Shown here: positions 5,086 through 34,664 of the stretch, in pieces
Layout: every line of letters begins with the position of its first letter
Numbering within the stretch: position 1 is the first letter of the stretch
Assembly: GCA_031271635.1 (NCBI GenBank)
Contig: JAISVG010000084.1
Coordinates: 1 to 45,090, forward strand
Origin: Erysipelotrichaceae bacterium
Lineage (GTDB): Bacteria > Bacillota_I > Bacilli_A > RFN20 > CAG-826
Reading direction: 5' to 3'
DNA: 45,090 nt
The notes under the pieces: generated by a model
The model's database searches: none
The model's input: only the letters and a program-made list of their open reading frames with translations
Told to the model about the DNA's origin: nothing
Program-made: the position numbers and the translations under genes

Positions 5086-5296
5086 ATGTAAGTCCTCCTA
5101 TGATTGTAATCATATTATATATAAAAATACCTTTTTTTAATATCTTTTTTATTGGCAATTTTGCGATGAAATGTTTTTTGAGGGTTTTTGTTTAGCAAAA
5201 CGGAATAATTATTTCTAAAGATCATTTAATAATATTTGTTAGTTCAAGCGATAAAATAGCAGCTCGAGCATGTTTTTAAGATAGAATAAAAGTATT

Positions 5297-21421: not shown

Positions 21422-21506
21422 GCGGTTATGGCGGAACTGGTAGACGCGCTAGACTTAGGATCTAGTGGGGAATCCCGTGCAGGTTCAAGTCCTGTTAACC
21501 GCACCA
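21422..21506 (+). tRNA. tRNA-Leu (anticodon UAG), class II with a long variable arm; integration target of the element
   Basis: Hand fold: GCGGTTA/TAACCGC acceptor, anticodon loop CTTAGGA, variable arm TGGGGAATCCCGT, T-arm GCAGG-TTCAAGT-CCTGT, then ACCA. An extended -10 (TGGTATAAT, 21402-21410) lies upstream. Confidence 0.9.
21490..21506 (+). repeat. attL core (3' end of tRNA-Leu)
   Basis: The 17-nt perfect repeat TCCTGTTAACCGCACCA extends to 22 nt (21485-21506) with one mismatch against 34261-34282. Confidence 0.85.
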
Positions 21507-21517
21507 TATAAAAAATT

Positions 21518-21550
21518 TAGTCCGAATAGTTCGGACTATTTTTAATTTTT
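21518..21550 (+). terminator. Strong hairpin plus T-run just inside attL (terminator for tRNA-Leu; may also end int transcription)
   Basis: TAGTCCGAA-TAG-TTCGGACTA (9-bp stem) is followed by TTTTTAATTTTT. The reverse strand also has a short T-run after the stem. Confidence 0.6.
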
Positions 21551-21562
21551 GAATAGTTTCGT

Positions 21563-21591
21563 GATACACTTTTGATACACTTTTATGTATC
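21563..21591. repeat. GATACAY heptamer array (2 direct + 1 inverted); candidate arm-type integrase sites, attL side
   Basis: GATACACTTTT occurs twice in tandem (21563-21573 and 21574-21584), followed by an inverted ATGTATC (21585-21591). The same heptamer recurs at the attR side. Confidence 0.5.
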
Positions 21592-22689
21592 AGAAGCATC
21601 AATCTTTAACTTAATTTTGCTCTTTAGATCTTCATCTGTAGGAGTATAATAGGTATCTGTTACGTTTGGATTAGAATGGCCTAACCAAGCGGCACGATCA
21701 TACTTATCAAAACCAAGACTTTTAAGATAGAGATTAGAGGATCTTCTAAAGTCATGAATCTTGATACGCTTAAGATTAACGGCTTTAGTATACTCATCAA
21801 GAATTCTTCGAATCGAGGTTTCACCGATTACTAAGGAATTCTTATTCTCTGACTTAAAAAGATAATCTTCCGAATTTGTTTTTTTATCTAATAATAAATA
21901 AAGGGCCTTGATTTCTTTAGTTAATGGATAAACACGATTTGAAGAATTAGTCTTTAGTATTGATTCTACTTGATGGCCTTTACCGGTTTTATTGGTGATA
22001 GATCTTTCAATAAAAACTAGATCATTCATCGTATCAATATCTTGGTGCTTTAATCCCCTTAATTCACCAATTCTAAGGCCATAATAAAAAAGAAGTGAAA
22101 ATAATAATTTATGATCAGTATTTTTAACTGCAGCAATAAATGATAGGAATTCTTCATGAGACCAAAATGATTGCTTATTCGTTTTCTTTAGCGGCACATT
22201 CTTTATCTTCAGAATTGAATAATCGAGATTCTTATCAAGGCCATATTTTGTTAAAAAATCTAAGAATAACTTTAAAGCGGCAATTAACTTAGTTTTATTA
22301 GATAGATTTACCCTCTCAAACTGCATTATGAGCTTACTTAAGGTAAGATTACTGATATTATCCACGCTGAGCCGCTCTAAATGAGGTTTAATGTATTTAT
22401 TAAAAGTTAAAACATGAGTATAAGCCGTTGTGTCACGATATTCTTTTTCTAAGTGACTAAGATAAAGAGGAATTAGTTCATTTATGGTCCACTTCTTTTG
22501 CTTTTTTTCAGTAACACCAAGCGTGAGATTCTCGTAATGGAGAGCTGCAGCAGATAAAGCCTGGGCTTCGCTAGTAAAGCCTCTCCGAAGAAGTTTATCG
22601 CCTTTATAGCAAAGACGGTAATAAAACTGAAGCTTAGGTTTTCCATCAAGGTCTTTTACATAATAAGGATAAACTCTAACGCCTCGCAT
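21583..22689 (-). CDS. int: Tyrosine recombinase / phage integrase
   Basis: The C-terminal catalytic region has RIGELRGL, HDFRRS, LGHSN and TDTYY (R..HxxR..H..Y). An N-terminal arm-binding-like domain is present. I start it at MRGVRVYPYY (22689); the track ORF extends to 22749. Confidence 0.85.
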   Translation of the reverse strand: MRGVRVYPYYVKDLDGKPKLQFYYRLCYKGDKLLRRGFTSEAQALSAAALHYENLTLGVTEKKQKKWTINELIPLYLSHLEKEYRDTTAYTHVLTFNKYIKPHLERLSVDNISNLTLSKLIMQFERVNLSNKTKLIAALKLFLDFLTKYGLDKNLDYSILKIKNVPLKKTNKQSFWSHEEFLSFIAAVKNTDHKLLFSLLFYYGLRIGELRGLKHQDIDTMNDLVFIERSITNKTGKGHQVESILKTNSSNRVYPLTKEIKALYLLLDKKTNSEDYLFKSENKNSLVIGETSIRRILDEYTKAVNLKRIKIHDFRRSSNLYLKSLGFDKYDRAAWLGHSNPNVTDTYYTPTDEDLKSKIKLKIDASDT

Positions 22690-22912
22690 ACATTGGTCTC
22701 CGACAAATTTCTTGAAGTTCATATTTTGAATAGTCAAATCGATGATCATTAATCATTGCTTTAATAAGACGGTTAATATCACCAAAAGAATAACAACTAA
22801 AAAACTTCTCAAGAACCATATCGGCATATTTAAAAAGCGATCTTTCGTCACGAAGGTTACAGGCCAGAATAAACTGCCGCTTTTCATAATCGGTTAAATT
22901 ATAATAATTCAT
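22676..22912 (-). CDS. Small hypothetical protein between rep and int (excisionase/RDF position)
   Basis: Start MNYYNLTDYEK, preceded by AAGGAGA 8 nt upstream. The longer track ORF start (23005) lies inside rep. No motif is recognised. Confidence 0.45.
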   Translation of the reverse strand: MNYYNLTDYEKRQFILACNLRDERSLFKYADMVLEKFFSCYSFGDINRLIKAMINDHRFDYSKYELQEICRRPMYARR

Positions 22913-24083
22913 CTTTAATATTCTCCTTTTTAACAAGCTCGCCAGTAAGGCGATTATAGCCTGGGGACTCAATAAAACGCTTAAGGCTCTCTTTAGCCTC
23001 ATCAAGCGTTACATGAGGTTTACCTTCATGACGGTTCATCTCATTAATAATTGCGAGATCTTTATAAGTAAATTTATCAAGTAACCTTTCACAAGAAATA
23101 GTTTCAATTAAAGAAGCTTTTGAAGGATCATTAATAATAAGTCTTGCTAGAATCATCGAAGCCGCTTTAATAAACCAATCTTTTTGGACGACCAAGGTTT
23201 TTTCAACTTCATACTGGACCTTAATAGATTCCTTAGAAACATTCTTAAGAAGCTTGTCCCATTTAGACCAATTTTCTTCTTTATTACGATTAGAAATATC
23301 ATACTTAAGATTTTGCTTAAAGGCGACTAAACCACCAAGCGAAGCAGCAATTACACGATTAATAGTTTCACTCTCTAAAGCAAGATGAAGTTTAACAAAC
23401 ATTGTTTCAGCGACTTCATCATACCAACGAGCTTCAAATCTGACCCAATCAGCAACATTGACTAAATAGTTCTTTTTCTCACGTTCAGCGGCTTTATTAT
23501 AAATACAAAGTTGTTTTGTTTCGCGACCACCGATATAAAAAGTAAAACCATCATTTTTAGAAATAATTAGTTTTTCTTTAACTTTATCAAGAATTTCAAC
23601 GTCATTAACCGTAATGTTCCACTTTCTGAAGTTAGTAGCATACTCTCTTTTAATGATTTTTTGATAAAGTTCCATCGCTTTAATACTTCCAGAATAATCA
23701 TCAATAGGAGTATCAATTCTCGTTGCTTTAAAACCCATTTTATAAAGCAAATCAAAAACCTTCAGCCAAGGATTATAGGAGTCAGAATTATTATTCTCAA
23801 CATCACGACAAGCATCACCAGATAATAATATTTGAGTACGCCATTCACCATGATTCCGAGGCTCTTCATCAGTAAAGAATTTCACACGACTGCCATAAAG
23901 ATAGCCTTTTTGATAACCATTAAGCGCATGATCCAAAGGAGTATACTCAAAAGGTTCATAGCCTAAGGACCTAATTAATAAAGAAAAATCGTTAGGAGTA
24001 AAAACTAACCTAAAAGTACCACTAACCCAATCGATTAAAGCATTGACTTTAAGATTATCTTGATCTTCTTTTAAATACATCAT
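22899..24083 (-). CDS. rep: Rolling-circle replication initiator, Rep_trans (PF02486)-like
   Basis: The N-terminus ALIDWVSGTFRL and the block ILLSGDACRDVE resemble the IDWLS.TF and SGqgCr signatures of the family that includes pT181 RepC and CTXphi RstA. Recognised from memory only. Confidence 0.6.
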   Translation of the reverse strand: MMYLKEDQDNLKVNALIDWVSGTFRLVFTPNDFSLLIRSLGYEPFEYTPLDHALNGYQKGYLYGSRVKFFTDEEPRNHGEWRTQILLSGDACRDVENNNSDSYNPWLKVFDLLYKMGFKATRIDTPIDDYSGSIKAMELYQKIIKREYATNFRKWNITVNDVEILDKVKEKLIISKNDGFTFYIGGRETKQLCIYNKAAEREKKNYLVNVADWVRFEARWYDEVAETMFVKLHLALESETINRVIAASLGGLVAFKQNLKYDISNRNKEENWSKWDKLLKNVSKESIKVQYEVEKTLVVQKDWFIKAASMILARLIINDPSKASLIETISCERLLDKFTYKDLAIINEMNRHEGKPHVTLDEAKESLKRFIESPGYNRLTGELVKKENIKDELL

Positions 24084-24303
24084 TGAAATTCTTTTCCTTT
24101 CATATTTTAAGACGACTGCCTCGACTAGTCGAGGATATAAGAATATTTAGATAACGATTACTTACGAGCCACACCCCGTATTACTACTGGGGTGTGGCTC
24201 TCTCGGCTTTTAGACTGTAGTAATCTAAAGATTACTAAAGAGTCCCCCAGGACGACATTATAGGGGGTCCTCTCGTAAAAGCCTCACGTTATCACCGCTT
24301 TCA
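24084..24303. promoter_or_regulatory. Structured GC-rich intergenic region upstream of rep (candidate replication origin and/or rep operator)
   Basis: It contains a perfect 16-nt palindrome CCTCGACTAGTCGAGG (24119-24134). A 12-bp perfect stem GAGCCACACCCC/GGGGTGTGGCTC with an 11-nt loop spans 24166-24200. An 8-bp stem TAGTAATC/GATTACTA spans 24218-24237. Confidence 0.5.
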
Positions 24304-26568
24304 TCACCATGAAAGCTCCTCTAGTTTTTCATCTTTCTTTTCTTTCACTCCTGGGCCGCTTGGGCCCTTCTTTTTAAGGCCAGAAAAGAGGCCTTTAAGA
24401 AGCCTCTTAGGCCAATATCCTTCTTGGTACTCAAGATCATCTGAAGAAGGATAAAGGCTCTTAAACTGCGCCGAATGATAAACGGAGACGGTCGCGTCTT
24501 TATAAGTATTTTCAAAGACCGGCTTATAGATATCGGTAGCGAAACGTTCAGAGTAGATCTTCTTTGGTTGAATAAAGTAAGCTACTTTTTTTGACTCTTG
24601 ATCTTTATCTTCTGAACCATGCTTAATGATCAAAGTATAAGACCTACTTTGATAAGTGTTTTCAAAAATAAAGAGCTTTTGCTGCAACTTTGCGGCAATC
24701 TTATTGGCCAAAAAAGAAAGAAGACTAAGATCACGGCGGTTCTCACGGTAGATGCTCCTAAACTCATTAATCTTAGAAAGGACCTTCTTCTGAAGCGGAT
24801 AAAGAAACCAGTTAAAAGGATAAAGGATCTCCGCTTCAGGATCTTTCTCAATTGTAATAATCGTATCAAAGAGATGTCTTATTTTGGCCTGGATATCAGA
24901 TGAGGCTTGCATGTCACAAAAAACCTTAATAAGCGGCTGATGATCAAGGGTTCTTGAATGCCGAATTACCTTATGAAAATCTTGAAAAGAATCATTTAAT
25001 TGATTAACAAAATCATCATCTTTAGAAAGACTCTGAAGGTCGTCTTTATTACCTCTTTCTTTATCGAGTTCCGTGTAAGTAATAACTCCAGAGTCAAAAT
25101 AAGAGATTCGCTCCGGGTCAAACTTTTTGCCAAGACGAAAATCATCATAGTTAATGTTGATCGAAAAAGCTTTAGAATCATAATAAAGAAGATCTACTTC
25201 AGATCTTTCAAAATAGTTATAGTCAAACTTAATAAAATGACCGGTATTAATAGCGACGTGATCATAGTTGATCGGATAGTTTGATGTTGCCAAAGGAACG
25301 TCTTGAATAAAAAGATAATAAGCCTCAAGATAAATTATTAAAGCATCGAAGATAGTAATTATCTTTAGGCCATCATAAGAATGCATCTTATTACTCTTAT
25401 AACCAAAAATAAAAGGCTCATGACCTTTAACATTGGCACGGTCTTTAAGGCTACCATCATGATCAAGACGTTTCCTTGGATAATAATACATAAAGCTTAT
25501 CCGGTCGATGTAGGCCTTAATGTGGACACGATTAAGGATCCTTCCGGCATTGATTTCTTGACGAAGACAAAACTCTAAAAATTCAAAATTAAAATCCGGA
25601 AACATCGTTCCATATTTATTAAGAATCTCAAGAACCGTGAAGCGAACTTTTGCCTCGAAACTCATTGAAAAATCAGTAATTAAAGTAGTCTTCCCGTCTC
25701 CAGGGGGCCCGACAACGCAGTTCATGACACCCATACTAGAAACAGCAGCTTCGTTAAGGGCTTCGCGGTGCATCAGTCTATTAATTCCGGTCCAACGTCG
25801 GACTTTATTAAAGTGTCTAATGACAAAAACAATAATAATGGGCCATAAATAAATTAAGGCCGGGAGAAAATATCTAATAAGCTTTGGAATAAAAGTAAAA
25901 AAAGTCGCATCGAAAGCGAACATATAAACATACATTAAAAATAAAGAAATAATAATCGGGATAGCATTAAGAATAAAACAAGAAACAATGATTAGAGTAA
26001 TTTTAAAAACAAGATTATTGATCAAGAATCTAAAGAACGAAATAACCTCAAATTTAAGTTTATCAAAGTGAATAATCTTATTCCTAATAAACATAAATAC
26101 TTGATAGCCTTTCGTTTCTTTTTGCTTCAGAGTACCGTCTTGAGCCACTAAAGAAGATGACTCATGAGCCGCCATAAAGCAAGTAAACAAGAGCTTCAAA
26201 AAGACATAAACAATAAGCACGATCATGATAATTCTTGTTAACGTCATCAAGAAATTAAGTACTAAAGAAATATAATCAAAGATGTTATCCTGGTTAATTA
26301 AATAAATAGGCCAAACTTTAAGTTGGATTAAGAACATGTTATCAAGAGCAAGCGGCGAAGCATCAATATTAATAATTCTGATCCCGAAAACTGAGATATT
26401 CTCCGGAATCACTAAGTAATCGATTTTTAGGCCAAAGAGACTAAATAAGTCAATAAAAGAGTTAACAAAGTGAAAAGCATTACCGGCGAATAAAAGCACT
26501 GTAACGGCCAAAATAGCAAGAATAATTAAGATCAAAAAAATAATATAAATGGCCTTCCTTAACTTCAC
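24304..26568 (-). CDS. Polytopic-membrane P-loop NTPase (about 6 N-terminal TM helices plus a cytoplasmic ATPase domain)
   Basis: 754 aa. Residues 1-255 are hydrophobic helices. Walker A is VVGPPGDGKTTL (aa 285-296, nt 25687-25710), with a candidate Walker B at GVITYTELDKE. The gene ends in TGA. Confidence 0.65.
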   Translation of the reverse strand: MKLRKAIYIIFLILIILAILAVTVLLFAGNAFHFVNSFIDLFSLFGLKIDYLVIPENISVFGIRIINIDASPLALDNMFLIQLKVWPIYLINQDNIFDYISLVLNFLMTLTRIIMIVLIVYVFLKLLFTCFMAAHESSSLVAQDGTLKQKETKGYQVFMFIRNKIIHFDKLKFEVISFFRFLINNLVFKITLIIVSCFILNAIPIIISLFLMYVYMFAFDATFFTFIPKLIRYFLPALIYLWPIIIVFVIRHFNKVRRWTGINRLMHREALNEAAVSSMGVMNCVVGPPGDGKTTLITDFSMSFEAKVRFTVLEILNKYGTMFPDFNFEFLEFCLRQEINAGRILNRVHIKAYIDRISFMYYYPRKRLDHDGSLKDRANVKGHEPFIFGYKSNKMHSYDGLKIITIFDALIIYLEAYYLFIQDVPLATSNYPINYDHVAINTGHFIKFDYNYFERSEVDLLYYDSKAFSININYDDFRLGKKFDPERISYFDSGVITYTELDKERGNKDDLQSLSKDDDFVNQLNDSFQDFHKVIRHSRTLDHQPLIKVFCDMQASSDIQAKIRHLFDTIITIEKDPEAEILYPFNWFLYPLQKKVLSKINEFRSIYRENRRDLSLLSFLANKIAAKLQQKLFIFENTYQSRSYTLIIKHGSEDKDQESKKVAYFIQPKKIYSERFATDIYKPVFENTYKDATVSVYHSAQFKSLYPSSDDLEYQEGYWPKRLLKGLFSGLKKKGPSGPGVKEKKDEKLEELSW

Positions 26569-26915
26569 TTGATGCTCCTTAAAAGATAAACAAGATTCTT
26601 ATTCTGGTAAAAGATCTTAGCTTCAGATAAAGCAAGTAAAACATGATCAACATCATCGATTTTAAAAATAAAGATTCCTAAGTTAAATTCATAATCAACC
26701 CGAATAATTAAAGAATCATCATGGATCTGAAGCGAGTCTTTCCTGATATAAAAATAACCATCATCTTTACTTTCATAAATGTTACCAATAAAAGAGTCTA
26801 GCTCAAAGTGATAACTAGAAAAGACTGCTTTAGTCGTAACCAATAAATAAGACAAGACAAAAAGGATAATACTAATCAAAAGAATTCTTAAGACTGTAAT
26901 AAATTTTGATTTCAT
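26565..26915 (-). CDS. Small membrane protein (N-terminal TM)
   Basis: 116 aa with the TM segment ITVLRILLISIILFVLSYLLV and the RBS AGGAGGGA. It has an ATGA overlap with the ATPase gene. Confidence 0.5.
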   Translation of the reverse strand: MKSKFITVLRILLISIILFVLSYLLVTTKAVFSSYHFELDSFIGNIYESKDDGYFYIRKDSLQIHDDSLIIRVDYEFNLGIFIFKIDDVDHVLLALSEAKIFYQNKNLVYLLRSIK

Positions 26916-26928
26916 TGTTCCCTCCTAT

Positions 26929-26957
26929 TTGACAAGTCTACTAAGAAAAGTTATAAT
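26929..26957 (+). promoter_or_regulatory. Consensus sigma-70-type promoter on the strand opposite to all surrounding genes
   Basis: TTGACA (26929-26934), a 17-nt spacer, then TATAAT (26952-26957). Confidence 0.45.
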
Positions 26958-26970
26958 ATAAATACAAGTT

Positions 26971-27003
26971 GAGCGGACCTAAGGCACCGCTCCTTTTTTA
27001 TTT
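26971..27003 (+). terminator. Plus-strand rho-independent terminator about 15 nt downstream of that promoter
   Basis: GAGCGG-ACCTAAGGCA-CCGCTC is followed by CTTTTTTATTT. Confidence 0.5.
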
Positions 27004-27345
27004 AAGAAATTTAATTACATAGAAATGATGACGACGTTTAATTTTATGACGACCGATAGATTGGAGATCCTTTAAATTAACAGTAATAACACCTTTACGA
27101 ACTCCAGAAAATTTAGGAAGAGTAAGATCCTCTTTTGGAATCGAGTAAACAGAACCATCCCTTACATAATTGATCTTACCAAGCATATACTTCTGTTTGT
27201 CATATTCTAGAGATGTAAAAGTATTAACATCACAAGTATTACCATTAATAGATCTAATATAAACATAATGGCCCGATTTTAAACCAAGTTTCTTACCATC
27301 AACCCAAGCAATTTTACCCTTAAGTTTTTTATCTTTACTTCCCAT
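26998..27345 (-). CDS. Hypothetical basic 115-aa protein
   Basis: ORF with the RBS AAGGAGAT. The sequence is Lys-rich and looks beta-rich. No family is recognised with confidence. Confidence 0.5.
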   Translation of the reverse strand: MGSKDKKLKGKIAWVDGKKLGLKSGHYVYIRSINGNTCDVNTFTSLEYDKQKYMLGKINYVRDGSVYSIPKEDLTLPKFSGVRKGVITVNLKDLQSIGRHKIKRRHHFYVIKFLK

Positions 27346-27360
27346 AATCTCCTTTACCTT

Positions 27361-27385
27361 AAAAGGGGAGTAAATACCACTCCCC
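27361..27385 (-). terminator. Minus-strand hairpin plus short T-run (intra-operon terminator/attenuator)
   Basis: The minus strand forms GGGGAGT-GGTATTT-ACTCCCC followed by TTTT. Confidence 0.4.
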
Positions 27386-27395
27386 AGAACATTAT

Positions 27396-27836
27396 TTAAT
27401 CGCGATCAATTACGTCGGTCGCGTTGATTTCTTTATCTGGCCTTAAAACCCAGAGCTTAGAAACTTCTTTATCATAAGTTAAAACGTCGACTTGATTCTC
27501 ATCTAAAAAGAAACTATGAGACATATTTCTTCCAAAAGTGACTTCCACTAGATGATACTTTTCTCCGTTAGTCTTTTCACCAAAAGATAATCTTGCTCGG
27601 ACGTTTAATCGCATTTCTTTAGGGACATCTGGAAGATTTAGTTTCAATGAAACTTTAATAGCTTCAGCTTCATCAATTTTTACGCGGCAGTTAAGTCTCC
27701 CAATCATTACAATCGCATAATAATAGGGTAATACCGACTCGCGGCGCTTTTCTTTAACAATCTTGCATGGGAACTTAGCTAAAGCATTATAATCCGCCTC
27801 AGTAAGTTCAATTAGTCTTTTAAATTCTTTTGACAT
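27396..27836 (-). CDS. Hypothetical 146-aa protein
   Basis: ORF with the RBS AAGGAGGAAA. No TM segment and no recognisable motif. Confidence 0.5.
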   Translation of the reverse strand: MSKEFKRLIELTEADYNALAKFPCKIVKEKRRESVLPYYYAIVMIGRLNCRVKIDEAEAIKVSLKLNLPDVPKEMRLNVRARLSFGEKTNGEKYHLVEVTFGRNMSHSFFLDENQVDVLTYDKEVSKLWVLRPDKEINATDVIDRD

Positions 27837-27913
27837 ATATTTTCCTCCTTTATGTCAATGCTCAATTTTTAGATCTTAGAGCTAGATCTATATCGTCCTT
27901 GGGTATTCAAGGA

Positions 27914-29980
27914 TCAATAACGACGTTTAGGCTTACTTGCTTTATTAAGTCTTTTAACATCTTTCTTTAGTTTCTGATGACTTAAAAAGCGGCTAATACG
28001 GCTAATAATACTAATCAAGATGATCAGTAAAATAACACCACCGATAATATAGATAATGGTTAAGAAAGAATCTTTATTATCGTTCCAAAGATCTAGAAGC
28101 TTATCCCACCAAGGACGATCTGGATCATCAATTGGGTCAGCAGGGTCTTCTTGAGGAGTTCCTTCAATCACGATCGTGTCATCTGGATCAAGATCTGGAT
28201 GAATGTTACCATCAAGGTCAATTACTACCGGAAAGCCATATTCATTATTGACCACATGATAGCCGTTAGGGTTACCAGTCAATCTAATCGTCTCTCCGGC
28301 AACAGTTTCATAACGAATCTCATAGGCCGAAAACCAATTAATAAAACTCTTATGAGGCTTAGCGAGGTTGTCATTGACGTAGCCATCGACATACTCAGTG
28401 ACATTCTGGTAACAATAATCATAACTATTACCATCAGAGGCCTTAACTGGGCCTTCCTTAAACCCATCGGTTTGACCACTAATATCAACACCAAAGATTG
28501 GTTCTACAGTGTCAATAAACTCCGTAATTGAGACATCGAGTTTTTGCTTATCAATACTAGGATAAGGAATACTCTGGCCGCTAGAATTACGAAGGACAGA
28601 TTGGCCTTCTTGATAGTAAGCGACAAGTCGAGTGACGTTCTCAATTGGCTTTTGTTTTTCGCGGTCGAAGTAAAAATCAAAACCGAAACGCTGAAGATAG
28701 AATCTAGTATTAACTTCTTGCTCAGCGAAATATTCTTGTACAGTAATTAAACCCACCGTAAGAAGCACCCAGTACCAAGCAATATCAGCATCAGCAACAG
28801 CAGTTTCAACGTCATTAAAGCCAAAAGACTCATGATAAAAAATTCCTTCGGCCATGTCAAACCAATAAACAAACTCAAACGGAACAAAAGTATTAGTTGA
28901 AAGATTGTTAAGGCTAATAGAACCATCTATAACAGCATTAGGCCAACTATCGCCACGGCCAATAGTTACTTCTGTTAATACAATCCGTAACGAATTATTA
29001 ATTATTGGAGCATAATCTTTAATATAAATATGATACTCAAAGCCACCACCATCAAGTGGAAATTGACCAACATCAAGATCATCTTTAGTAAAAATAAAAG
29101 GAGTAACAGCTCCAAGTTCAATATAATAGCCTTTAAAACCGATGGGCCAGAAAGGAGCAAGATCAGAGAGATTACCTGTGATTGAATTAGACACAACGAA
29201 ATCGCCATCAACAACATTCGCTGATGTGATGTCCCAAGGAAGAGCAGCATACTTACCACTCATTGAAAGCGGCATATTAAAACTCACCGCAAAGTTATTA
29301 GTAAGTTGAGTAATACTTCTGATGTTTCGACCAGAAACATCACTTAAAACGGTCGGATAAAAAGTAACACCAAGCCGGAGTTCATATCTAACCCCTGGCA
29401 TCGGCATTGAATAATTAATTGCCGCATAATATGGTCTTAATATCACTCCTTTAGAGCTAGTAAAAGCCAATGAATCAGGACCAACTTTAACATAGACAAG
29501 TGGCACTTCATTAACAAAAAGATAAGGAAGAACTAATTCCTTATCAATTAAAAGCGATTGAAGGTAAGTAAAAGGATTTACCGGATACCAAGGAGACTCA
29601 TAAGCCGGTGAAGTTTCAACCTGAAAGATAAAATTCCAAGTAGAAGCAGATTCGCGAAGATAAAGATTAGCGTTACCGTTCTGATAAGTATAATAATCAG
29701 GATCAAGATCTCCTGGTAAAACGGAAACCGGGAAAACTTCACTTAATAAATCAGTTCTTCCGGTGTATAGAGTGACATAATTTCCAGATCTATTAAATCC
29801 TTCATATGAAAGATCATCCTGAGACATCAAGACCGGAAGCGGAAGCTGCGGGGCGAGCGCAGCATCCACCTCTTGCCAAACAAAATCAGTACTATCTGAA
29901 GCTTGAACAGATAAAGAAATATTAGTATGTAAAGGAATTAAGATTAATAAGCTTAATAATAGTACTAAGATTCTTTTCAT
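27914..29980 (-). CDS. Large type-I membrane protein (signal peptide, ~610-aa ectodomain, C-terminal TM anchor, basic tail); candidate adsorption/fusion protein
   Basis: Signal peptide MKRILVLLLSLLILIPLHTNISLSVQA. C-terminal TM segment FLTIIYIIGGVILLIILISIISRI followed by KLKKDVKRLNKASKPKRRY. A Pro/Asp-rich stalk (PQEDPADPIDDPDRPWW) precedes the anchor. Confidence 0.6.
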   Translation of the reverse strand: MKRILVLLLSLLILIPLHTNISLSVQASDSTDFVWQEVDAALAPQLPLPVLMSQDDLSYEGFNRSGNYVTLYTGRTDLLSEVFPVSVLPGDLDPDYYTYQNGNANLYLRESASTWNFIFQVETSPAYESPWYPVNPFTYLQSLLIDKELVLPYLFVNEVPLVYVKVGPDSLAFTSSKGVILRPYYAAINYSMPMPGVRYELRLGVTFYPTVLSDVSGRNIRSITQLTNNFAVSFNMPLSMSGKYAALPWDITSANVVDGDFVVSNSITGNLSDLAPFWPIGFKGYYIELGAVTPFIFTKDDLDVGQFPLDGGGFEYHIYIKDYAPIINNSLRIVLTEVTIGRGDSWPNAVIDGSISLNNLSTNTFVPFEFVYWFDMAEGIFYHESFGFNDVETAVADADIAWYWVLLTVGLITVQEYFAEQEVNTRFYLQRFGFDFYFDREKQKPIENVTRLVAYYQEGQSVLRNSSGQSIPYPSIDKQKLDVSITEFIDTVEPIFGVDISGQTDGFKEGPVKASDGNSYDYCYQNVTEYVDGYVNDNLAKPHKSFINWFSAYEIRYETVAGETIRLTGNPNGYHVVNNEYGFPVVIDLDGNIHPDLDPDDTIVIEGTPQEDPADPIDDPDRPWWDKLLDLWNDNKDSFLTIIYIIGGVILLIILISIISRISRFLSHQKLKKDVKRLNKASKPKRRY

Positions 29981-29991
29981 GTTTTCTCCTT

Positions 29992-30609
29992 TTAAGAAAT
30001 AACGACTTTGTAATTAACTAGTTCGATATGATAATTCCACTCAATTTCATAAGTAGAAACTGGATTAAAATTATCATCAAAAGTAGTAGCTGCTGAAAGC
30101 TCGAACTTTTCTAAAGTAACATCTAAGCCATCGGCAATAGCACCACTACCAACACTTGCTTGAATAGAGTCATCACCGAAAGGATTAAAATAAATTTCAA
30201 AAATGCCACCGCCTAAATAGATAACAGCAACATCAGTAGAAAGATAAGAAGTAGATTCGGTAGTTGTCTTATCTTCACCAATCGTCGAAGTATAAGCAGT
30301 CAAAATGCTTTTAACTCCGGCGATCGAAGCTACATCATCATCGGCCACACAAATCTTCATTAACTGATAAACGGTGGTTTGATTGTTTTCACCAATTGTT
30401 GGATCATATTCGTAGCCAGGGGCTACAGAAAGCGAAACCGACTCAATATCGCCAACTTCCATATGGCCAGTGATTTTATTGGCCTCATTAACGACTTTGT
30501 CCCAGTTAGCACCTAAGAAGCCAGTACCAACTGCAAGACCTACTGCAGCAAGTAAAACTGCTACAGTAATAACAATAGACTTTGTTTTATTTTGATTGTA
30601 ATGTGACAT
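29992..30609 (-). CDS. Type-II anchored membrane protein (N-terminal TM, 170-aa ectodomain)
   Basis: 205 aa with the TM segment IVITVAVLLAAVGLAVGTGFLGA and the RBS AAGGAGGAC. Confidence 0.55.
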   Translation of the reverse strand: MSHYNQNKTKSIVITVAVLLAAVGLAVGTGFLGANWDKVVNEANKITGHMEVGDIESVSLSVAPGYEYDPTIGENNQTTVYQLMKICVADDDVASIAGVKSILTAYTSTIGEDKTTTESTSYLSTDVAVIYLGGGIFEIYFNPFGDDSIQASVGSGAIADGLDVTLEKFELSAATTFDDNFNPVSTYEIEWNYHIELVNYKVVIS

Positions 30610-30623
30610 ATAGTCCTCCTTTT

Positions 30624-30893
30624 TTAATTAGATAGGTCGTCTAGATCTTCTTCTAAAAAGACTGCAGCGACCCACCTCATGAAGCCGTTACGGCGCTTTA
30701 ATTTTGGAACAGAGATATTACGAATTTTAGCCTGGTGAATAGTTGATCCTTTTTTCTGATTGTAACTTTCAACAGACTTTTTAAGATCTTCCCATGACTC
30801 GCCTTCGGCAAGTTTTTTAGCGATCCATTTTTTGGCCGCTAGAAGTTCCTTTTGATCTTTAGGATGAGGAACTAAGTATTTTTGCTTGAACAC
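30624..30893 (-). CDS. Hypothetical 89-aa protein
   Basis: ORF in the packed co-directional array; basic; no motif recognised. Confidence 0.4.
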   Translation of the reverse strand: MFKQKYLVPHPKDQKELLAAKKWIAKKLAEGESWEDLKKSVESYNQKKGSTIHQAKIRNISVPKLKRRNGFMRWVAAVFLEEDLDDLSN

Positions 30894-30898
30894 AACTT

Positions 30899-31174
30899 TT
30901 ACTTAACACCCAAAGCTTTACAAATTAGATCTTTAATAGTTAAGTAATCTTTAACATGTTTTTTTCCAACAGGAATAAAGAAACCATTTGAACCCTTCTT
31001 AATAGAAGGCTTTACTTTAGAATCGTTAACCATAGGATCGAAGATAACAGTTATTTTTCGACTACCTTTTTCATAAGATCTTCCCATGACTAAATTCTGA
31101 GTCATAATCCCTTTACCAAGAGTTGAAACAGCATGATCAGCAGTAATCTTAAGTTCTTCGTGATCACTTTTCAT
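30899..31174 (-). CDS. Hypothetical 91-aa protein
   Basis: ORF in the packed co-directional array with the RBS AAGGAG upstream. Confidence 0.4.
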   Translation of the reverse strand: MKSDHEELKITADHAVSTLGKGIMTQNLVMGRSYEKGSRKITVIFDPMVNDSKVKPSIKKGSNGFFIPVGKKHVKDYLTIKDLICKALGVK

Positions 31175-31211
31175 AAAACTAATTAATAACTCCTTTAATA
31201 ACTATTTAGAC

Positions 31212-31571
31212 TTAAACACGACGTTTTTTATTAGCAAGAGAAGCAAGCTTCTTTTTTTCAACAAGCTTAGCTTCTTTAGCTTTTAGTTTACGTTCCTGAC
31301 GTTCTTTCTTTTGTTCAGGGGATAAACCAGCAAAGAATGCACTACGACGTGCTTTTGATTTAGATGGTAGACCTTTATTAGCAGCATAAGCTTCAGCTGA
31401 ATCAGTTCTAGCCTGAAGATAACCTTTACGATAAGCAACCTCTTCAGGAGTTAAAATCTCCCCATTTGCATCAACACGATTTTTTAATTGATTCGAATAA
31501 CGTTTGCCCTTTTCAGAAGGATCGAGAAGAACAATTTCGTTACCTCTTTTAGTTTTAACTATAGTACCCAT
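31212..31571 (-). CDS. Highly basic 119-aa protein (candidate nucleic-acid-binding/nucleoprotein)
   Basis: C-terminal KKERQERKLKAKEAKLVEKKKLASLANKKRRV. GGAGGT lies 5 nt before the MGTIVKTK ATG, so the start is 31571 rather than the track's 31583. Confidence 0.55.
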   Translation of the reverse strand: MGTIVKTKRGNEIVLLDPSEKGKRYSNQLKNRVDANGEILTPEEVAYRKGYLQARTDSAEAYAANKGLPSKSKARRSAFFAGLSPEQKKERQERKLKAKEAKLVEKKKLASLANKKRRV

Positions 31572-31704
31572 ATGTACCTCCATTAATTAATGCAGGCGGA
31601 TCTTGCTAGTTTGCCGCGGTCAGTAACTCACCGCCTGACTCATTTTTTTTATGAAAGCATTCTTTATTCTTTAGATGCGCGGCCATCTTAAAGAAACAAA
31701 ATAA

Positions 31705-31938
31705 TTAATTAGTTTCCGGCAAGTCCTCCTTTAGTTCAACTCCGAAATATGAAAGAAGATACTCATATTCTTCTTTAGAAATATACCAACCACGATACCA
31801 ACCACGTCTAAAATTAGATCTTTTCTCTGCTGCAAAATAAATAATTTCGCCATTTTTCTCAACATGAGAATAAAAACAAATAATAGACTTAATCGGAACA
31901 ACAACATCACCAAGACTAATAATCGCTTCTCTTTTCAT
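31705..31938 (-). CDS. Hypothetical 77-aa protein
   Basis: The ORF abuts the stop of the upstream 366-aa gene (stop and start are adjacent). The same-strand overlapping ORF 31731-31913 was rejected. Confidence 0.4.
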   Translation of the reverse strand: MKREAIISLGDVVVPIKSIICFYSHVEKNGEIIYFAAEKRSNFRRGWYRGWYISKEEYEYLLSYFGVELKEDLPETN

Positions 31939-33039
31939 TTAGATCTCCTTTTCTTTTAACTGATTAATCATTGAACCTAGTTCGATTCTCTCAAAAATAT
32001 ATGAACCAGAATACTTATAATCTAACTTCCGGTAATTCTGAAAGGCTTCTTTACCATCTTTATCCGCTGCAGTAAAAATAAACCATGAGAATAATTCATG
32101 GAGCTTATCATTAATGAGCCGGTAGAATTTAAAACCTAAAGTCTTGGCTTCATCAACTAAAAGCCAATTATCAGGATTCTTAATAAATTCTTCACGTTGT
32201 TTATCATTTTTAAGAGTTTGATTAGGGTTACGTTTTTTAGTAACAGCTTTAACATCATTACCTTTTTCAAATTTTTTAGGAGCGAATAATTCAGTTAATT
32301 TATCTTTTAGGTTTAAAAAAAATTTATCAAGTTTTTTTGAATTTTCAATAAAAAAATGTTTGAAATTATCTTTAATATAAAAACCACCTAAAGAATAAAC
32401 CGAAGTTTCTAAATTAAGATTTAATTGGATCTTTAAATCTTTTTTTTCTAAGAAGCTAAATAAGATTTCATATATGAAATAAAATGAATTAGAATTATTA
32501 ACTTTACTAAATTTTATATCTTTAACATGACTCTTTTCAGGAATAAAAGGAAAAGCTTTAAACCAAGCTTGTTTAATTTCTTCTTCTAAAGCAAGATAAG
32601 AGTCGGACGTCCGACCTGATTTTTTAATCTCACGGATTTTCCTAATTGTAAAAGTTGCAGGAAGATTCTTCCTATCATCTTCAGGAATAGAAAGAAGTTC
32701 TGTTAATTGAGAAAAGGAATAATCTTTATATTCCTTCTTTAGTTCTAAGGAATACATTGAGTCATCTTGATTAGAAAAAGTGATATATACTCGAATTAAA
32801 TTTTTGATAGTTGTAAGAGAAAGATTAAATCTTTCCTTTGCAAAGTCTTCAATTGTTTCATAATTAGCAGTTAAATAAAGTTTTTCATCTCTAATCTTAG
32901 AAAGTCTAGAACCAATTCTTAAAAATTGTTTTTCAATCTCTCCCATCGATGCATCAATGGAAGAAGAAAGATCTACCAATTTTTGATAATTTTTGATTAA
33001 TGTGAAACTATCATTTAATTCGGTATTATTTTTTGCCAT
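31939..33039 (-). CDS. First gene of the long leftward operon; 366-aa protein of unknown function
   Basis: RBS AAAGGAG. The N-terminal ~90 aa (FLRIGSRLSKIRDEKLY...YETIEDFAKERFNLSLTTIKNLIRVY) weakly resemble HTH/ParB-like early-phage DNA-binding modules. Confidence 0.55.
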   Translation of the reverse strand: MAKNNTELNDSFTLIKNYQKLVDLSSSIDASMGEIEKQFLRIGSRLSKIRDEKLYLTANYETIEDFAKERFNLSLTTIKNLIRVYITFSNQDDSMYSLELKKEYKDYSFSQLTELLSIPEDDRKNLPATFTIRKIREIKKSGRTSDSYLALEEEIKQAWFKAFPFIPEKSHVKDIKFSKVNNSNSFYFIYEILFSFLEKKDLKIQLNLNLETSVYSLGGFYIKDNFKHFFIENSKKLDKFFLNLKDKLTELFAPKKFEKGNDVKAVTKKRNPNQTLKNDKQREEFIKNPDNWLLVDEAKTLGFKFYRLINDKLHELFSWFIFTAADKDGKEAFQNYRKLDYKYSGSYIFERIELGSMINQLKEKEI

Positions 33040-33149
33040 GTTCGAACTCCTTTGTGCAATGAAAGCACATTATGATTATATTATGAGAATAATTGACACA
33101 AATGTCAATCAAAATGTGCAATCAAAGAACAAAAAAGTAAAATTAAAAT
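33040..33149. promoter_or_regulatory. Divergent promoter/operator region (genetic-switch-like)
   Basis: The palindrome TTGACAcaaaTGTCAA (33093-33108) gives back-to-back -35 boxes. The leftward promoter is TTGACA-17 nt-CATAAT, with the -10 at 33080-33085 on the minus strand. The repeat TGTGCAAT(G/C)AAAG occurs at 33053-33065 and 33115-33127. Confidence 0.5.
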
Positions 33150-33500
33150 ATGAAAATGCTTTTAAAGCTAAGAAAACAATACAAAAAAACACAAGAAGAA
33201 GTAGCTAAAGCAATTTATATGGACAGATCTCAGTATAGCAAAATAGAAAACGGAAAAATGGGAATTGCTTTCGATCAAATATTACTTTTATCAAAATTTT
33301 ACGGAATATCATTAGCAGCATTTGGAAGTGATAACGAAGAATTAATTGTATTAACAAAAAACCAATACAAACTTTTAATACAAGTTAAAAACATGATAGA
33401 AGATCTTGAAAGAGGGCAAAATATAACAGATAATTTTAAAGATTCAACAATTAATGGAGATGTTGTAATAGGACATAACAACATAATAAAAAAAAAGTAA
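33150..33500 (+). CDS. XRE/cI-family HTH repressor
   Basis: LRKQYKKTQEEVAKAIYMDRSQYSKIENGKMGIAFDQILLLSKFYGISL is a canonical HTH_3 pattern. The gene is divergent from the long operon. Confidence 0.8.
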   Translation: MKMLLKLRKQYKKTQEEVAKAIYMDRSQYSKIENGKMGIAFDQILLLSKFYGISLAAFGSDNEELIVLTKNQYKLLIQVKNMIEDLERGQNITDNFKDSTINGDVVIGHNNIIKKK

Positions 33501-33518
33501 TCATAAAAAAGGAGTATT

Positions 33519-34139
33519 ATGGCAAAAATTTGTAAAATATGTGGAAAACAAGGGTACATGTACTTTCAATATTGTTATGAACACTTACAACAAATAAAAA
33601 AAGAAGGACAAAATAGTGAAGAAAAAAAAGAAAACACGTGCAAAAAATGTGGAAAACCAAGTGGAGAATATGATCTATGCTATAAATGCTATAGAACAAA
33701 AGTTGAAGAAGATCTAAAGCAAGACAGAAGCATATTAATTCAAAGCGAAAAAGATAGCGGAATTGATATTAGAGATAAATGGCCAGCAGAAATAAGAACA
33801 ATACAAGGGTGTAAAGTAAGAAGTCATGCAGAATGCAGAATAGCAGACTGGCTATACTCACAAGAAGTAAGATATGATTACGAAAGACAACTATATAAAA
33901 AAGACGACGTAGAGAAATTTTTACTTTCGGATTTTTTTCTTCCTGATTACAAAATCTACATAGAGTACTGGGGATATAAAGATAGCGAAACATACAACAA
34001 AAGAAGAGAAGAAAAAATGCAAATATACAAATTTAACGAATGCATAGTTGAACACCTACAAGACAGGGATCTAAAAGTTTTAGACGACGCACTAAGAGCG
34101 ATTGCAATAAAACACGGTATCAAACTAAAGAACCCGTGA
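33519..34139 (+). CDS. Two zinc fingers plus a PD-(D/E)XK-like (restriction-endonuclease fold) domain protein
   Basis: CKICGKQGYMYFQYCYEH and CKKCGKPSGEYDLCYKCY are followed by SHAECRIADWLYSQEVRYDYERQ...LSDFFLPDYKIYIEYWGYK. The latter resembles the nuclease-fold module seen at the N-terminus of helicase IV-type proteins. RBS AAAGGAG; 18 nt downstream of the repressor. Confidence 0.55.
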   Translation: MAKICKICGKQGYMYFQYCYEHLQQIKKEGQNSEEKKENTCKKCGKPSGEYDLCYKCYRTKVEEDLKQDRSILIQSEKDSGIDIRDKWPAEIRTIQGCKVRSHAECRIADWLYSQEVRYDYERQLYKKDDVEKFLLSDFFLPDYKIYIEYWGYKDSETYNKRREEKMQIYKFNECIVEHLQDRDLKVLDDALRAIAIKHGIKLKNP

Positions 34140-34156
34140 TACATTACATGATACAT
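34138..34156. repeat. GATACAT x2 direct repeats; candidate arm-type integrase sites, attR side
   Basis: GATACAT occurs at 34138-34144 and 34150-34156. A 10-bp AT-rich inverted repeat AAATATTCAA-TAG-TTGAATATTT lies at 34218-34240. Confidence 0.45.
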
Positions 34157-34265
34157 AACTATTTTATTCAAAAGAATAAATAATATTAATGTGATTCTCA
34201 ACCACAAAAAATAAGTTAAATATTCAATAGTTGAATATTTATACTTAAATAATTGAAAGATCAAT

Positions 34266-34282
34266 TCCTGTTAACCGCACCA
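34266..34282 (+). repeat. attR core (duplicate of the tRNA-Leu 3' end)
   Basis: TCCTGTTAACCGCACCA is identical to 21490-21506. Confidence 0.85.
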
Positions 34283-34664
34283 ACACACGATGAAATGGCC
34301 CATAAAAGGGCTGTTTTTATTTCTATGAAATTTAAGATTGTTTTATCTAAGATCCTGAGTTCATCCTTTTTAATGATTAGAAAGCTGTGAGGAACTTTGT
34401 GATAATTTAGCTTTAGAACAGATTCCTAATTTTTCTAAAAGTCATAGATTATTGAATATGGAGAGTTTTTGAACAACAAAGCAAGGTCAAAGTGCAGCAG
34501 GAGCATCTAAAGGCCATTTTATGGTAAATCAACTAGATAGTTCTTTTTGAAGGCCGTTCTGCCTTGTAACTTCGAGTGAACTTAGATTATCGCTCACTCG
34601 CTAGCGGATGATAAAAAAGAAATTATGTCATTGTCGATTTCAGAGTATCTAATGAGGAGCAAAA

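Follow-up and report, generated by a model that had tools for sequence, protein, structure and literature searches.

A 12.8-kb element in a tRNA-Leu gene of an Erysipelotrichaceae bacterium as a candidate non-tailed, extrusion-type virus

We analysed a 45,090-nt stretch of DNA from a gut Erysipelotrichaceae bacterium (the window), in which positions 21490–34282 are occupied by a 12.8-kb integrated mobile element, inserted by a tyrosine integrase into a tRNA-Leu(TAG) gene at its 3′ end. The host is a metagenome-assembled genome of this family, according to the source record of the largest element protein, a 754-aa membrane ATPase. In our estimate there is about an even chance that the element is an integrated temperate, non-tailed and non-lytic virus of the extrusion (filamentous-phage-like) type, from an undescribed lineage. 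We favour this reading because of the relationships of the ATPase, the module of membrane proteins and the order of its genes, the exchangeable replicons of single-stranded DNA (ssDNA) type (IS30 transposases included), a repressor switch, an 8.2-kb circular relative, an orphan adsorption-like protein and the absence of the ATPase from plasmids. The conserved core comprises an N-terminally anchored protein, a large C-terminally anchored protein with a variable head, a small membrane protein and the ATPase. The parts are of known kinds (tRNA integrase, Rep_trans replicon, XRE switch and Zot/FtsK-like motor), but the lineage that combines them is described in no library or paper within the literature and databases searched.

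The last 17 nt of tRNA-Leu, TCCTGTTAACCGCACCA, occur exactly twice in the window, at 21490–21506 and 34266–34282 (0 copies expected from 100 shuffles). If one mismatch is allowed, the repeat lengthens to 22 nt, and over 29 nt its two copies are 86% identical. The 17- and 22-nt forms had already been noted in the initial annotation, made from the letters of the window, and both are borne out. The 3′ end of the tRNA is rebuilt by the attL copy, which belongs to the element. Since a terminator-like hairpin (34292–34317, terminator scan) directly adjoins the attR copy, we read it as the original 3′ flank and terminator of tRNA-Leu, displaced by 12.8 kb through the insertion. The tRNA-Leu 3′ end reads …GGTTCAAGTCCTGTTAACCGCACCA and the sequence to the right of the element starts ACACACGATGAAATGGCCC; the predicted junction of the empty site is the two joined. 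An exact-protein look-up with a left-flank gene, aimed at the empty site, gave no match. The genes on both sides are housekeeping genes: UvrB, SecA, PrmC and RF-1 precede the element, and two MgtE genes follow it.

Between the repeats lie 16 open reading frames (ORFs), all of them intact: 14 are tightly packed on the minus strand, and two are on the plus strand (Table 1). An XRE repressor faces the single 14-gene operon, and the integrase gene at the other end is transcribed towards the tRNA. The ORF list and domain scans agree with the initial annotation on the number and orientation of the genes and on the divergent XRE module at attR. They also uphold its tyrosine integrase directly inside attL (Phage_integrase, 3e-17), its Rep_trans-like initiator of rolling-circle replication (RCR; Rep_trans, 7e-24, plus Rol_Rep_N) and the topologies that it gave for a 754-aa polytopic membrane P-loop NTPase and a 688-aa protein with signal peptide and C-terminal anchor. 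Its statement that there are no genes of tailed phages or type IV secretion systems (T4SS) holds as well: scans of the ORFs with Pfam, PHROGs and NCBIfam revealed no terminase, portal, capsid, tail, lysin, VirB4 or VirD4, and no match to a relaxase family, VirB6 or a cell-wall hydrolase. We considered and rejected a phage-inducible chromosomal island or satellite, as integrase and repressor are at opposite ends and no primase, helicase or terS match was found.

The membrane ATPase and its anchored neighbours

The 754-aa protein, which we propose as the motor for DNA export and assembly, begins with hydrophobic segments at residues 9–249, at least four of them strong, and carries the Walker A motif GPPGDGKT at residues 287–294. 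Its AlphaFold2 model (pLDDT 86.5, pTM 0.80) has ten helices in residues 1–278, followed by a P-loop domain with large insertions; about 200 aa are inserted between Walker A and Walker B. A phmmer search of 1.84 billion representatives, counted in clusters at 50% identity, yielded at least 522 clusters at E ≤ 1e-3, and 247 remain at 1e-30. Almost all members have 700–790 aa and align from end to end. In an alignment of 60 sequences, K293 (Walker A, GxxGxGKT), E500, K503, N522 and D526 are invariant. E500 is situated at the end of a β-strand in a Walker-B-like TE, and an RH...DxQR motif is also conserved.

Pfam matches of the 60 members are of the generic P-loop kind. The 25 families listed for them include neither FtsK_SpoIIIE nor a family of T4SS coupling proteins, and each of the other 31 families matches at most one member. 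The ATPase has no match in PHROGs, PADLOC or NCBIfam, none in the PDB by sequence or profile search, and none among the 72,556 plasmids of PLSDB. Comparison of folds with Foldseek gave weak matches in the PDB to HerA (4e-3) and the STIV2 B204 packaging NTPase (8e-3), and a weak one to the Zot N-domain 2r2a (target-normalised TM-score 0.43); FtsK, TrwB and VirB4 structures are not among the best 50. The best match in BFVD is an unnamed 269-aa viral protein (1.6e-4, target-normalised TM-score 0.59), and several entries named ‘Zonular occludens toxin [Inoviridae sp.]’ follow from 2e-3 (target-normalised TM-score 0.51, probability 1.0). Further matches are A32-type packaging ATPases and ORF3 of Acholeplasma phage L2 (1.2e-2, probability 0.99). 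Because of these weak PDB and BFVD matches, the ATPase would belong with the FtsK/HerA-type viral morphogenesis and packaging ATPases and be nearest to the Zot/pI group, recognisably in no described family.

The initial annotation had regarded transmembrane (TM) helices N-terminal to the P-loop as the reverse of inovirus pI. This is correct for pI of Ff phages, but ORF2 of the plectrovirus SpV1 has two N-terminal TM helices before Walker A, and Roux et al. 2019 accept pI-like proteins with one or two TM domains at either the N- or the C-terminus (PMC6813254). The odd feature of the ATPase is thus the size of its membrane domain (∼250 aa), which exceeds that range, rather than its N-terminal topology.

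The 116-aa protein encoded just upstream appears to be a conserved small partner of the ATPase, translationally coupled to it. It is 34% identical with a 116-aa protein of L003, the closest relative (see below), and the relatives have a small ORF with an N-terminal TM helix at this position that shares an SY(L/I)xxT motif after the helix. In the main clade of relatives, a membrane protein of ∼45 aa (MKTLKRI..AVSYIVYT.K) is encoded just upstream of the ATPase (e.g., L028 3617–3832 and L066 3625–3831), and SYLLVT after the TM helix of the window protein resembles it. The ∼45-aa protein may be a conserved partner or a coat candidate.

The 688-aa protein (TM helix at about residues 641–659) is an orphan among 5.8 billion proteins and matches no Pfam, PHROG, NCBIfam or PADLOC family; its single-sequence AlphaFold2 model is unusable (pLDDT 36). 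Only the C-terminal ∼150 aa resemble the positional counterpart in L003. Since a variable orphan head and a conserved anchor end are expected of receptor-binding proteins, we view it as a candidate host-recognition (adsorption or spike) protein. Filamentous phages likewise encode, upstream of the ATPase, a large adsorption protein that bears a signal peptide and is anchored at the C-terminus, a likeness of topology and position only; pIII homology, probed only through the Pfam and PHROG scans, gave no match. The 205-aa protein is a candidate for a structural or envelope component; its counterparts by position are a 229-aa protein of L003 and family F4 of the main clade. We detected no homology between the 205-aa protein and F4, or between the 688-aa protein and main-clade family F2.

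Replication module and related loci

The Rep_trans domain of the 394-aa initiator scores 84.9 bits (Pfam cutoff, 29.6), and the nearest solved structure in the PDB is the plasmid Rep 4cij (1.1e-5). The protein contains an IYNK motif, which we take to correspond to the motif with the catalytic tyrosine in pT181 RepC. The operon contains a single sizeable non-coding stretch (24084–24303; no ORF of more than 24 aa), which lies between the genes for the ATPase and Rep. As ssDNA it folds with −42.3 kcal/mol, compared with −19.9 ± 3.2 for shuffled sequences (z = −6.97; 0 of 200 shuffles reach its value), and Rfam finds no known RNA family in it. A like hairpin with an AGTAAT-containing loop adjoins the 5′ end of the Rep_trans gene or lies inside it in L003, L004, L006, L013 and L127, so that, with the window counted, it is present in six of nine loci with Rep_trans. 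The loop is kept, whereas the stems differ with compensation (CACACCCC/GGGGTGTG versus TAGGGGGG(T)/(A)CCCCCCTA). Since a conserved loop on a variable GC stem beside rep resembles the nick site of a double-strand origin, the hairpin at 24166–24200 is a candidate for this site. With a Rep_trans domain above the Pfam threshold and a conserved AGTAAT-loop GC hairpin upstream of it, the element would be a self-contained rolling-circle replicon.

About 135 related loci were collected. A degenerate DNA motif encoding E..KERGN(14 aa)N..ND retrieved at least 120 metagenome contigs and two contigs of IMG/VR (protein-pattern scans of IMG/VR gave no match), protein patterns retrieved 11 loci in GTDB genomes, and exact-protein look-ups added three more. 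The hosts of the 11 GTDB loci are Bacilli, Erysipelotrichaceae, Christensenellaceae, Oscillospiraceae, Clostridia and Ca. Alloenteromonas. The recurrent gene order is one or two N-anchored proteins of ∼360 aa, an N-anchored protein of ∼197 aa, a signal-bearing, C-anchored protein of 470–830 aa, a small N-anchored protein, the ATPase and a replication gene. The replication gene is of type PF23343 ‘REP_ORF2-G2P’ at 75 loci, Rep_trans at nine, an IS30-type transposase at seven and Rep_1 at L005. Around the ATPase module, the modules for integration and replication are freely interchanged. According to a taxonomy commentary, filamentous phages carry Rep_trans, HUH, RepL or IS3/IS30 transposase replication modules around a conserved morphogenesis module (PMC13595969); the window, with Rep_trans, and its relatives, with G2P/ORF2, Rep_1 and IS30, have the same pattern.

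Homologous integrases adjoin tRNA genes in L006, L010 and L013, and tRNA-Arg(TCT), tRNA-Ser(GCT) and tRNA-Arg(ACG) are found at this place among the relatives; as in the window, the integrase gene faces the tRNA 3′ end. Elements of this type therefore insert at different tRNA genes in different hosts. The locus DNA examined for L010 and L013 holds no att repeats. In L005, a large serine recombinase (13218–14726) and a Rep_1 initiator (4111–5298) replace the tyrosine integrase and Rep_trans; in L008 and L011, an IS30-type transposase replaces both. A related element lies in the 57-kb GenBank record MT835493 (L001, ‘UNVERIFIED: Bacteriophage sp.’), beside genes for an ImpB/UmuC-type polymerase, PAPS reductase, DUF4007, cysteine desulfurase and a helicase. 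This record looks like a fragment of a bacterial chromosome mislabelled as a phage.

The sub-lineage of the window consists of L003 and L139, whose ATPases are 43% and 38–40% identical with that of the window; L003 also has a homologous Rep (42%) and homologs of the 146- and 116-aa proteins. L003 (a Logan contig of SRR23593172; 8,245 bp) ends in an exact 24-nt terminal repeat over the ribosome-binding site and start of the first gene and therefore closes into a circle of 8,221 bp. It contains eight co-directional genes, for an N-anchored 229-aa protein, an anchored 829-aa protein, a 174-aa protein, an N-anchored 116-aa protein, the ATPase, a 97-aa protein, Rep_trans and a 69-aa protein, and has neither integrase nor repressor. 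L003 is likely the episomal form or the complete genome of the closest relative, and it defines a minimal autonomous gene set that is like a filamentous phage genome in size and arrangement.

The element could also be a rolling-circle plasmid that has integrated, or an element in decay; its membrane and surface proteins would then be cargo that alters the host surface and has no dedicated function in DNA export. The closed 8.2-kb circle fits this idea, small plasmids of Gram-positive bacteria typically have Rep_trans, Rep_1 and hairpin origins, and defence-type cargo is present. However, the ATPase and membrane module is constant across at least 135 loci and the replicon varies, which is the opposite of what cargo would do. 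Moreover, 16 of 16 ORFs are intact and tightly packed, and PLSDB lacks the ATPase. We regard this explanation as very improbable.

For the extrusion-type virus that we favour, the genes suggest the following course of events. Derepression would lead to excision of the element, and Rep would nick the hairpin and generate single-stranded circles. The DNA, possibly coated by the basic 123- and 115-aa proteins, would be passed to the membrane ATPase, which would move it across the cytoplasmic membrane while membrane-anchored proteins assemble onto it. The 688-aa protein would form the host-recognition end, and the cell would not be lysed. The particle could be a filament, a rod or a vesicle. By analogy, the gene order of the excised circle would parallel gVIII-gIII-gVI-gI.

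Remaining genes and flanking sequence

Apart from the 366-aa product of the first gene of the long operon, which has homologs in L005 and L010, the ORFs discussed in this section without a named family match none above threshold in Pfam, PHROGs, NCBIfam or PADLOC. The 123-aa very basic protein is a candidate DNA-binding protein. Its family, F6, occurs in 13 loci across sub-lineages, upstream of the structural genes, and retains an RxGYLxAxxD motif. Of the very basic 119-aa protein of the initial annotation, the charge (+16) stands, and the length is 123 aa, or 119 aa if translation starts from the second Met. The 146-aa protein is retained in the closed-circle relative L003. Relatives have an ORF of 108–148 aa at the position of the small ORF between Rep and integrase, for which a role as excision or regulatory factor is possible from its position alone.

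In the divergent control region, the minus strand carries a TTGACA-17-CATAAT sequence (33108–33080) that fits 11 of 12 consensus positions, a match to the consensus alone. The 206-aa nuclease-like protein is probably an accessory defence gene that would protect the lysogen, outside the core of the element; we consider it cargo because it matches the PADLOC defence candidate PDC-S69. The PADLOC scan found no other defence system in the element.

Immediately to the right of the element, the two MgtE-type magnesium transporter paralogues (441 and 442 aa) are arranged in tandem (35761–38411, minus strand). Further on, a 538-aa protein with Big_2 Ig-like domains (40708–42324, minus strand) coincides with the GC maximum of the window (0.463 at 41001–42000, compared with ∼0.37 elsewhere), and its gene may be a separately acquired surface-protein gene.

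Table 1. Features of the integrated element and its target site (positions in the window)
Feature	Position	Strand	Evidence or remarks
tRNA-Leu(TAG), integration target	21422..21506	+	ARAGORN; Rfam tRNA, 59.9 bits; directly after tRNA-Gln
attL core repeat, 17 nt	21490..21506	+	Exact two-copy repeat; reaches 21478–21506 at lower identity
Bidirectional terminator-like hairpin	21518..21538	.	Between attL and integrase 3′ end; terminator scan, both strands
Tyrosine integrase, 388 aa	21583..22749	-	Pfam Phage_integrase 3.3e-17 and SAM-like N-domain; phrog_1 integrase 9e-44
Small ORF, ∼73–77 aa, between Rep and integrase	22676..22897	-	ORF list; no family match
Rolling-circle initiator, 394 aa, pT181/Rep_trans type	22899..24083	-	Pfam Rep_trans 7.3e-24, Rol_Rep_N 9e-5; phrog_453
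Non-coding stretch, structured and richer in GC, that separates the ATPase and Rep genes; candidate double- and/or single-strand origin	24084..24303	-	ssDNA fold
12-bp GC hairpin, loop AGTAGTAATAC; candidate Rep nick site	24166..24200	-	Unique in window
754-aa polytopic membrane P-loop ATPase, lineage hallmark	24304..26568	-	Family of 522 clusters; AlphaFold2 model; Foldseek
116-aa N-anchored membrane protein	26565..26915	-	TM helix at residues 8–26; stop overlaps ATPase start
115-aa basic protein, net charge +16	26998..27345	-	Weak homolog in L004; no family match
146-aa soluble protein	27396..27836	-	44% identity with L003 3281–3805; no family match above threshold
688-aa acidic protein, N-terminal signal-like segment, C-terminal TM anchor and basic tail	27914..29980	-	Topology
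205-aa N-anchored acidic protein	29992..30609	-	TM helix at residues 12–30
Two small soluble ORFs, 89 and 91 aa	30624..31174	-	ORF list; no family matches
123-aa very basic protein, net charge +16	31212..31583	-	Family F6
77-aa ORF	31705..31938	-	ORF list; no family match
366-aa first gene of long operon, DUF3102-like	31939..33039	-	phrog_15077 3e-21; weak DUF3102 match
Divergent control region, 110 bp, long operon/repressor	33040..33149	.	Promoter-like site
XRE/cI-type repressor, 116 aa	33150..33500	+	HTH_3 5.5e-14; phrog_3 transcriptional repressor
206-aa CxxC zinc-ribbon and PD-(D/E)xK nuclease-like protein	33519..34139	+	PADLOC PDC-S69 6.6e-30, HEAT_CxxC_PD-DEXK 2.4e-8; phrog_9019 3.7e-7
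attR core repeat	34266..34282	+	Reaches 34254–34282 at lower identity

Comparison with described viruses and mobilizable elements

Filamentous phages (Tubulavirales) package circular ssDNA in a helical filament that has no envelope, and the nearest known domain of their pI-like morphogenesis ATPase is Zot. Among characterised filamentous phages we compared the element with the plectrovirus SpV1 (Plectroviridae, Tubulavirales; SpV1-R8A2B, X51344, translated with code 4). ORF2 of SpV1 (337 aa) continues after its two TM helices with Walker A GKLGTGKT, ORF1 (715 aa) bears a signal peptide and is anchored at its C-terminus, and ORF3 is an IS30-like transposase. The two systems thus share TM helices before Walker A, a signal-bearing and C-anchored protein of ∼700 aa, several small TM proteins, hosts in the neighbourhood of Bacilli and Mollicutes and, in relatives L008 and L011, an IS30 transposase in the place of Rep. 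Unlike SpV1, the window element (12.8 kb, compared with 8.3 kb) has no small coat candidate and uses a tyrosine integrase into a tRNA gene; its ATPase is more than twice as long, with the ∼250-aa membrane domain and the ∼200-aa insertion, and in SpV1 it is the ATPase that precedes the large protein. When aligned with the SpV1 ORF2 family, the ATPase profile matches from the last TM helix over the linker to Walker A (hhalign probability 49%) and at the RH..QR motif (probability 60%, E 8e-5). These local matches are collinear and suggestive, short of proof of kinship. Direct plectrovirus homology was rejected, as BLAST and HMM searches gave no match to SpV1 or MV-L1 and the profile matches are weak.

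Gut inoviruses provide a second comparison. The genomes described by Sugimoto et al. 2021 (5.6–9.4 kb) were recognised by a major coat protein of Inoviridae type that could be detected in them, and Zot is encoded in 54 of 56; in the representatives targeted to Firmicutes the Zot domain stands alone, Ino-06 has a tyrosine recombinase, and a minor coat or adsorption protein is assigned to the large gene downstream of the coat gene (PMC8530359). The window element resembles their Clade 1 (PMC8530359) and the cryptic inoviruses (PMC6813254) in being a small one-strand array in gut Clostridia and Firmicutes with an RCR Rep beside a morphogenesis ATPase. It differs in that its ATPase family (60 members) lacks a Zot Pfam match and exceeds one or two TM domains, and in that a coat candidate is lacking. 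Of the two readings considered in the initial annotation, the inovirus- or plectrovirus-like one therefore stands in part: Zot/pI proteins are the best viral ATPase fold matches, the motifs of SpV1 ORF2 are similar and the replication genes fit, but there is no BLAST match to SpV1 proteins and no coat protein.

The other reading, a plasmavirus-like element, did not hold up, since no protein is L2-like and replication differs, L2 using DnaA-box origins and the element an RCR initiator. Membership in the Plasmaviridae was rejected: the 16 window proteins compared with all ORFs of Acholeplasma virus L2 (L13696) gave no BLASTP match at E ≤ 0.05 (for the ATPase, the 688-aa protein and Rep against L2 ORF1, ORF13 and ORF3, E ≥ 0.16), and hhalign of the ATPase profile with L2 ORF3 covers Walker A only (probability 0.9%). 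Virions of the Plasmaviridae are enveloped and pleomorphic and bud from a wall-less host. L2, of ∼12 kb, integrates in tRNA genes and replicates bidirectionally from DnaA-box origins with the host replisome (PMC12662186). The features that the element shares with the Plasmaviridae are its size of ∼12 kb, its integration in a tRNA gene and its own recombinase. L2 is likewise temperate, with co-directional ORFs in which signal-bearing and C-anchored envelope proteins are followed by a P-loop ATPase and then by integrase and att. In contrast, it shares no homologous protein with the element, has no Rep, and its ATPase (312 aa) has no TM segment in a hydropathy scan. L2 ORF3 (L002 2278–3216) contains Walker A ALPGGGKS, LILDEF, LRHQG...LLSQ and VWWLW, and VWWLW also precedes Walker A in SpV1 ORF2. 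ORF3 of plasmaviruses may therefore be a pI-like ATPase that has gone unrecognised, although hhalign of L2 ORF3 with the SpV1 ORF2 profile is not significant.

Without membership in this family, the element could still be an enveloped budding virus similar to plasmaviruses or pleolipoviruses, in which basic proteins condense the genome, the 688- and 205-aa proteins are spikes and the ATPase loads a vesicle. Erysipelotrichaceae are placed close to the Mollicutes, and the analogy of gene order with L2 (down to the P-loop ORF3), the Foldseek match of L2 ORF3, the shared size and tRNA integration (PMC12662186) and the presence of two strongly basic proteins in an element with no coat candidate all fit this idea. 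Nevertheless, sequence similarity to L2 proteins is lacking beyond the Walker A alignment, and replication without Rep from DnaA boxes is at odds with a lineage of the window that always has RCR or transposase modules. The hosts, moreover, include Christensenellaceae, Oscillospiraceae and Clostridia, which are walled, so that enveloped budding would be hard. Taken together, we consider a budding virus improbable.

A serious alternative is an integrative mobilizable element (IME) or an element of conjugative type. Rep_trans would here be a MobT-like relaxase, and the ATPase would be a non-canonical coupling protein (cf. TcpA, and TraB of actinomycete integrative and conjugative elements); surface proteins would aid contact, and ssDNA would pass from cell to cell with no particle being formed. 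In streptococcal IMEs, RCR-type relaxases (PF02486, PHA00330 and others) are always accompanied by TcpA coupling proteins (PMC5357655). The element is like IMEs of Firmicutes in layout; these (Coluzzi et al. 2017, PMC5357655) combine an integrase with an RCR initiator (Rep_trans, PHA00330 and Rep_1 types) beside an N-terminally membrane-anchored ATPase of the FtsK superfamily, at conserved loci. The initial annotation had called the combination of RCR Rep, ATPase and integrase unplaceable. It was right insofar as no described ATPase family is matched, but the combination is also the described layout of Firmicutes IMEs with TcpA (PMC5357655), a rival that was not weighed there. Rep also has a weak match to the NCBIfam MobT equivalog (6.9e-8), HerA/FtsK-superfamily folds are among the best PDB matches of the ATPase, and an IME would need neither the coat protein nor the particles for which we have no evidence. 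A dual role of Rep as initiator and relaxase is possible.

Several observations nonetheless make an IME unlikely in our view. The MobT match reaches 31.7 bits, compared with a cutoff of 600, and the Rol_Rep_N domain and the plasmid Rep 4cij are closer matches of Rep. The ATPase is not detectably a TcpA or FtsK_SpoIIIE protein, as judged from the Pfam families listed for the 60 members; FtsK, TrwB and VirB4 are not among its best 50 PDB fold matches, and its family is absent from the 72,556 plasmids searched. An IME requires only a relaxase and a coupling protein, so that the conserved module of three to five membrane-protein genes, with its anchored ectodomains, would be superfluous. IS30 in place of Rep is known for plectroviruses and not for relaxases, and the closed 8.2-kb relative has no integrase. 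As for an integrative and conjugative element, VirB4, VirB6-like and VirB8/TcpC-like proteins and a cell-wall hydrolase were not found in the Pfam, PHROGs and NCBIfam scans of the window.

The nearest published parallel is the reinterpretation of Dehalococcoides IME1 as a novel lineage of filamentous or budding viruses, found only in Chloroflexota, with genomes of 21–28 kb that are proposed to be packaged as double-stranded DNA, and supported by enrichment in metaviromes and electron microscopy (bioRxiv 10.64898/2026.09.15.751708). Like the window element, IME1 is integrated, lacks tailed-phage hallmarks, has a pI-like ATPase followed by TM and signal-peptide proteins and a repressor on the opposite strand, and was previously unclassifiable. 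The window element differs in its size of 12.8 kb, its Firmicutes host and its RCR replicon, and the likeness is drawn from the description and the genes alone.

Several points weigh against an extrusion-type virus. An inovirus-type major coat protein, which would be small, hydrophobic and α-helical, was found neither in the window nor in the closed 8.2-kb L003: no free ORF of 30–90 aa encodes a TM helix, the gaps between genes leave no room for one, and the only N-anchored proteins of the window element have 116 and 205 aa. A coat protein of non-canonical type is possible. The ATPase has a ∼250-aa membrane domain instead of one or two TM domains, plus the ∼200-aa insertion; none of the 60 family members, nor the window protein, has a Pfam Zot match, its fold matches are weak (E 1.6e-4 to 1e-2) and the hhalign probabilities are 49–60%. 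At 12.8 kb, the element is larger than characterised filamentous phages (∼4–11 kb). Relatives number two in IMG/VR and none in PHROGs, and there is no evidence of particles. Among the matches listed, 0 of 120 metagenomic loci are circular, and the integrated state therefore dominates in bulk metagenomes.

A more far-reaching version of the extrusion-type reading, which we put forward tentatively, takes the element as the founding, intact member of a lineage, of the rank of family or higher, whose non-tailed viruses are widespread yet unrecognised in gut Firmicutes. A ∼250-aa membrane channel fused to a Zot/FtsK-like motor in a single protein would replace pI/pXI (and pIV) and extrude ssDNA from rolling-circle replication across a Gram-positive envelope without a canonical pVIII-type coat, and the same clade may tie Plectroviridae and Plasmaviridae together.

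Hardly any non-tailed phages with chronic release are known from Gram-positive gut bacteria, and such phages escape virus finders that depend on markers. The ATPase family comprises at least 522 clusters at 50% identity, yet it has no Pfam or PHROG model and is represented by two IMG/VR contigs and one mislabelled GenBank record; the TE(L/F)DKERGN...NQxND motif offers a practical search handle for the group. Were an IME the true explanation, the ATPase would represent a new family of coupling proteins or translocases for integrated mobilizable elements. If particles are made, a large hidden group of temperate viruses would exist in Erysipelotrichaceae, Christensenellaceae, Oscillospiraceae and related Bacilli. 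Such viruses would move genes without killing cells, the defence-type nuclease being an example of their cargo, and the fused channel-ATPase would be a new solution for the export of DNA across the Gram-positive envelope.

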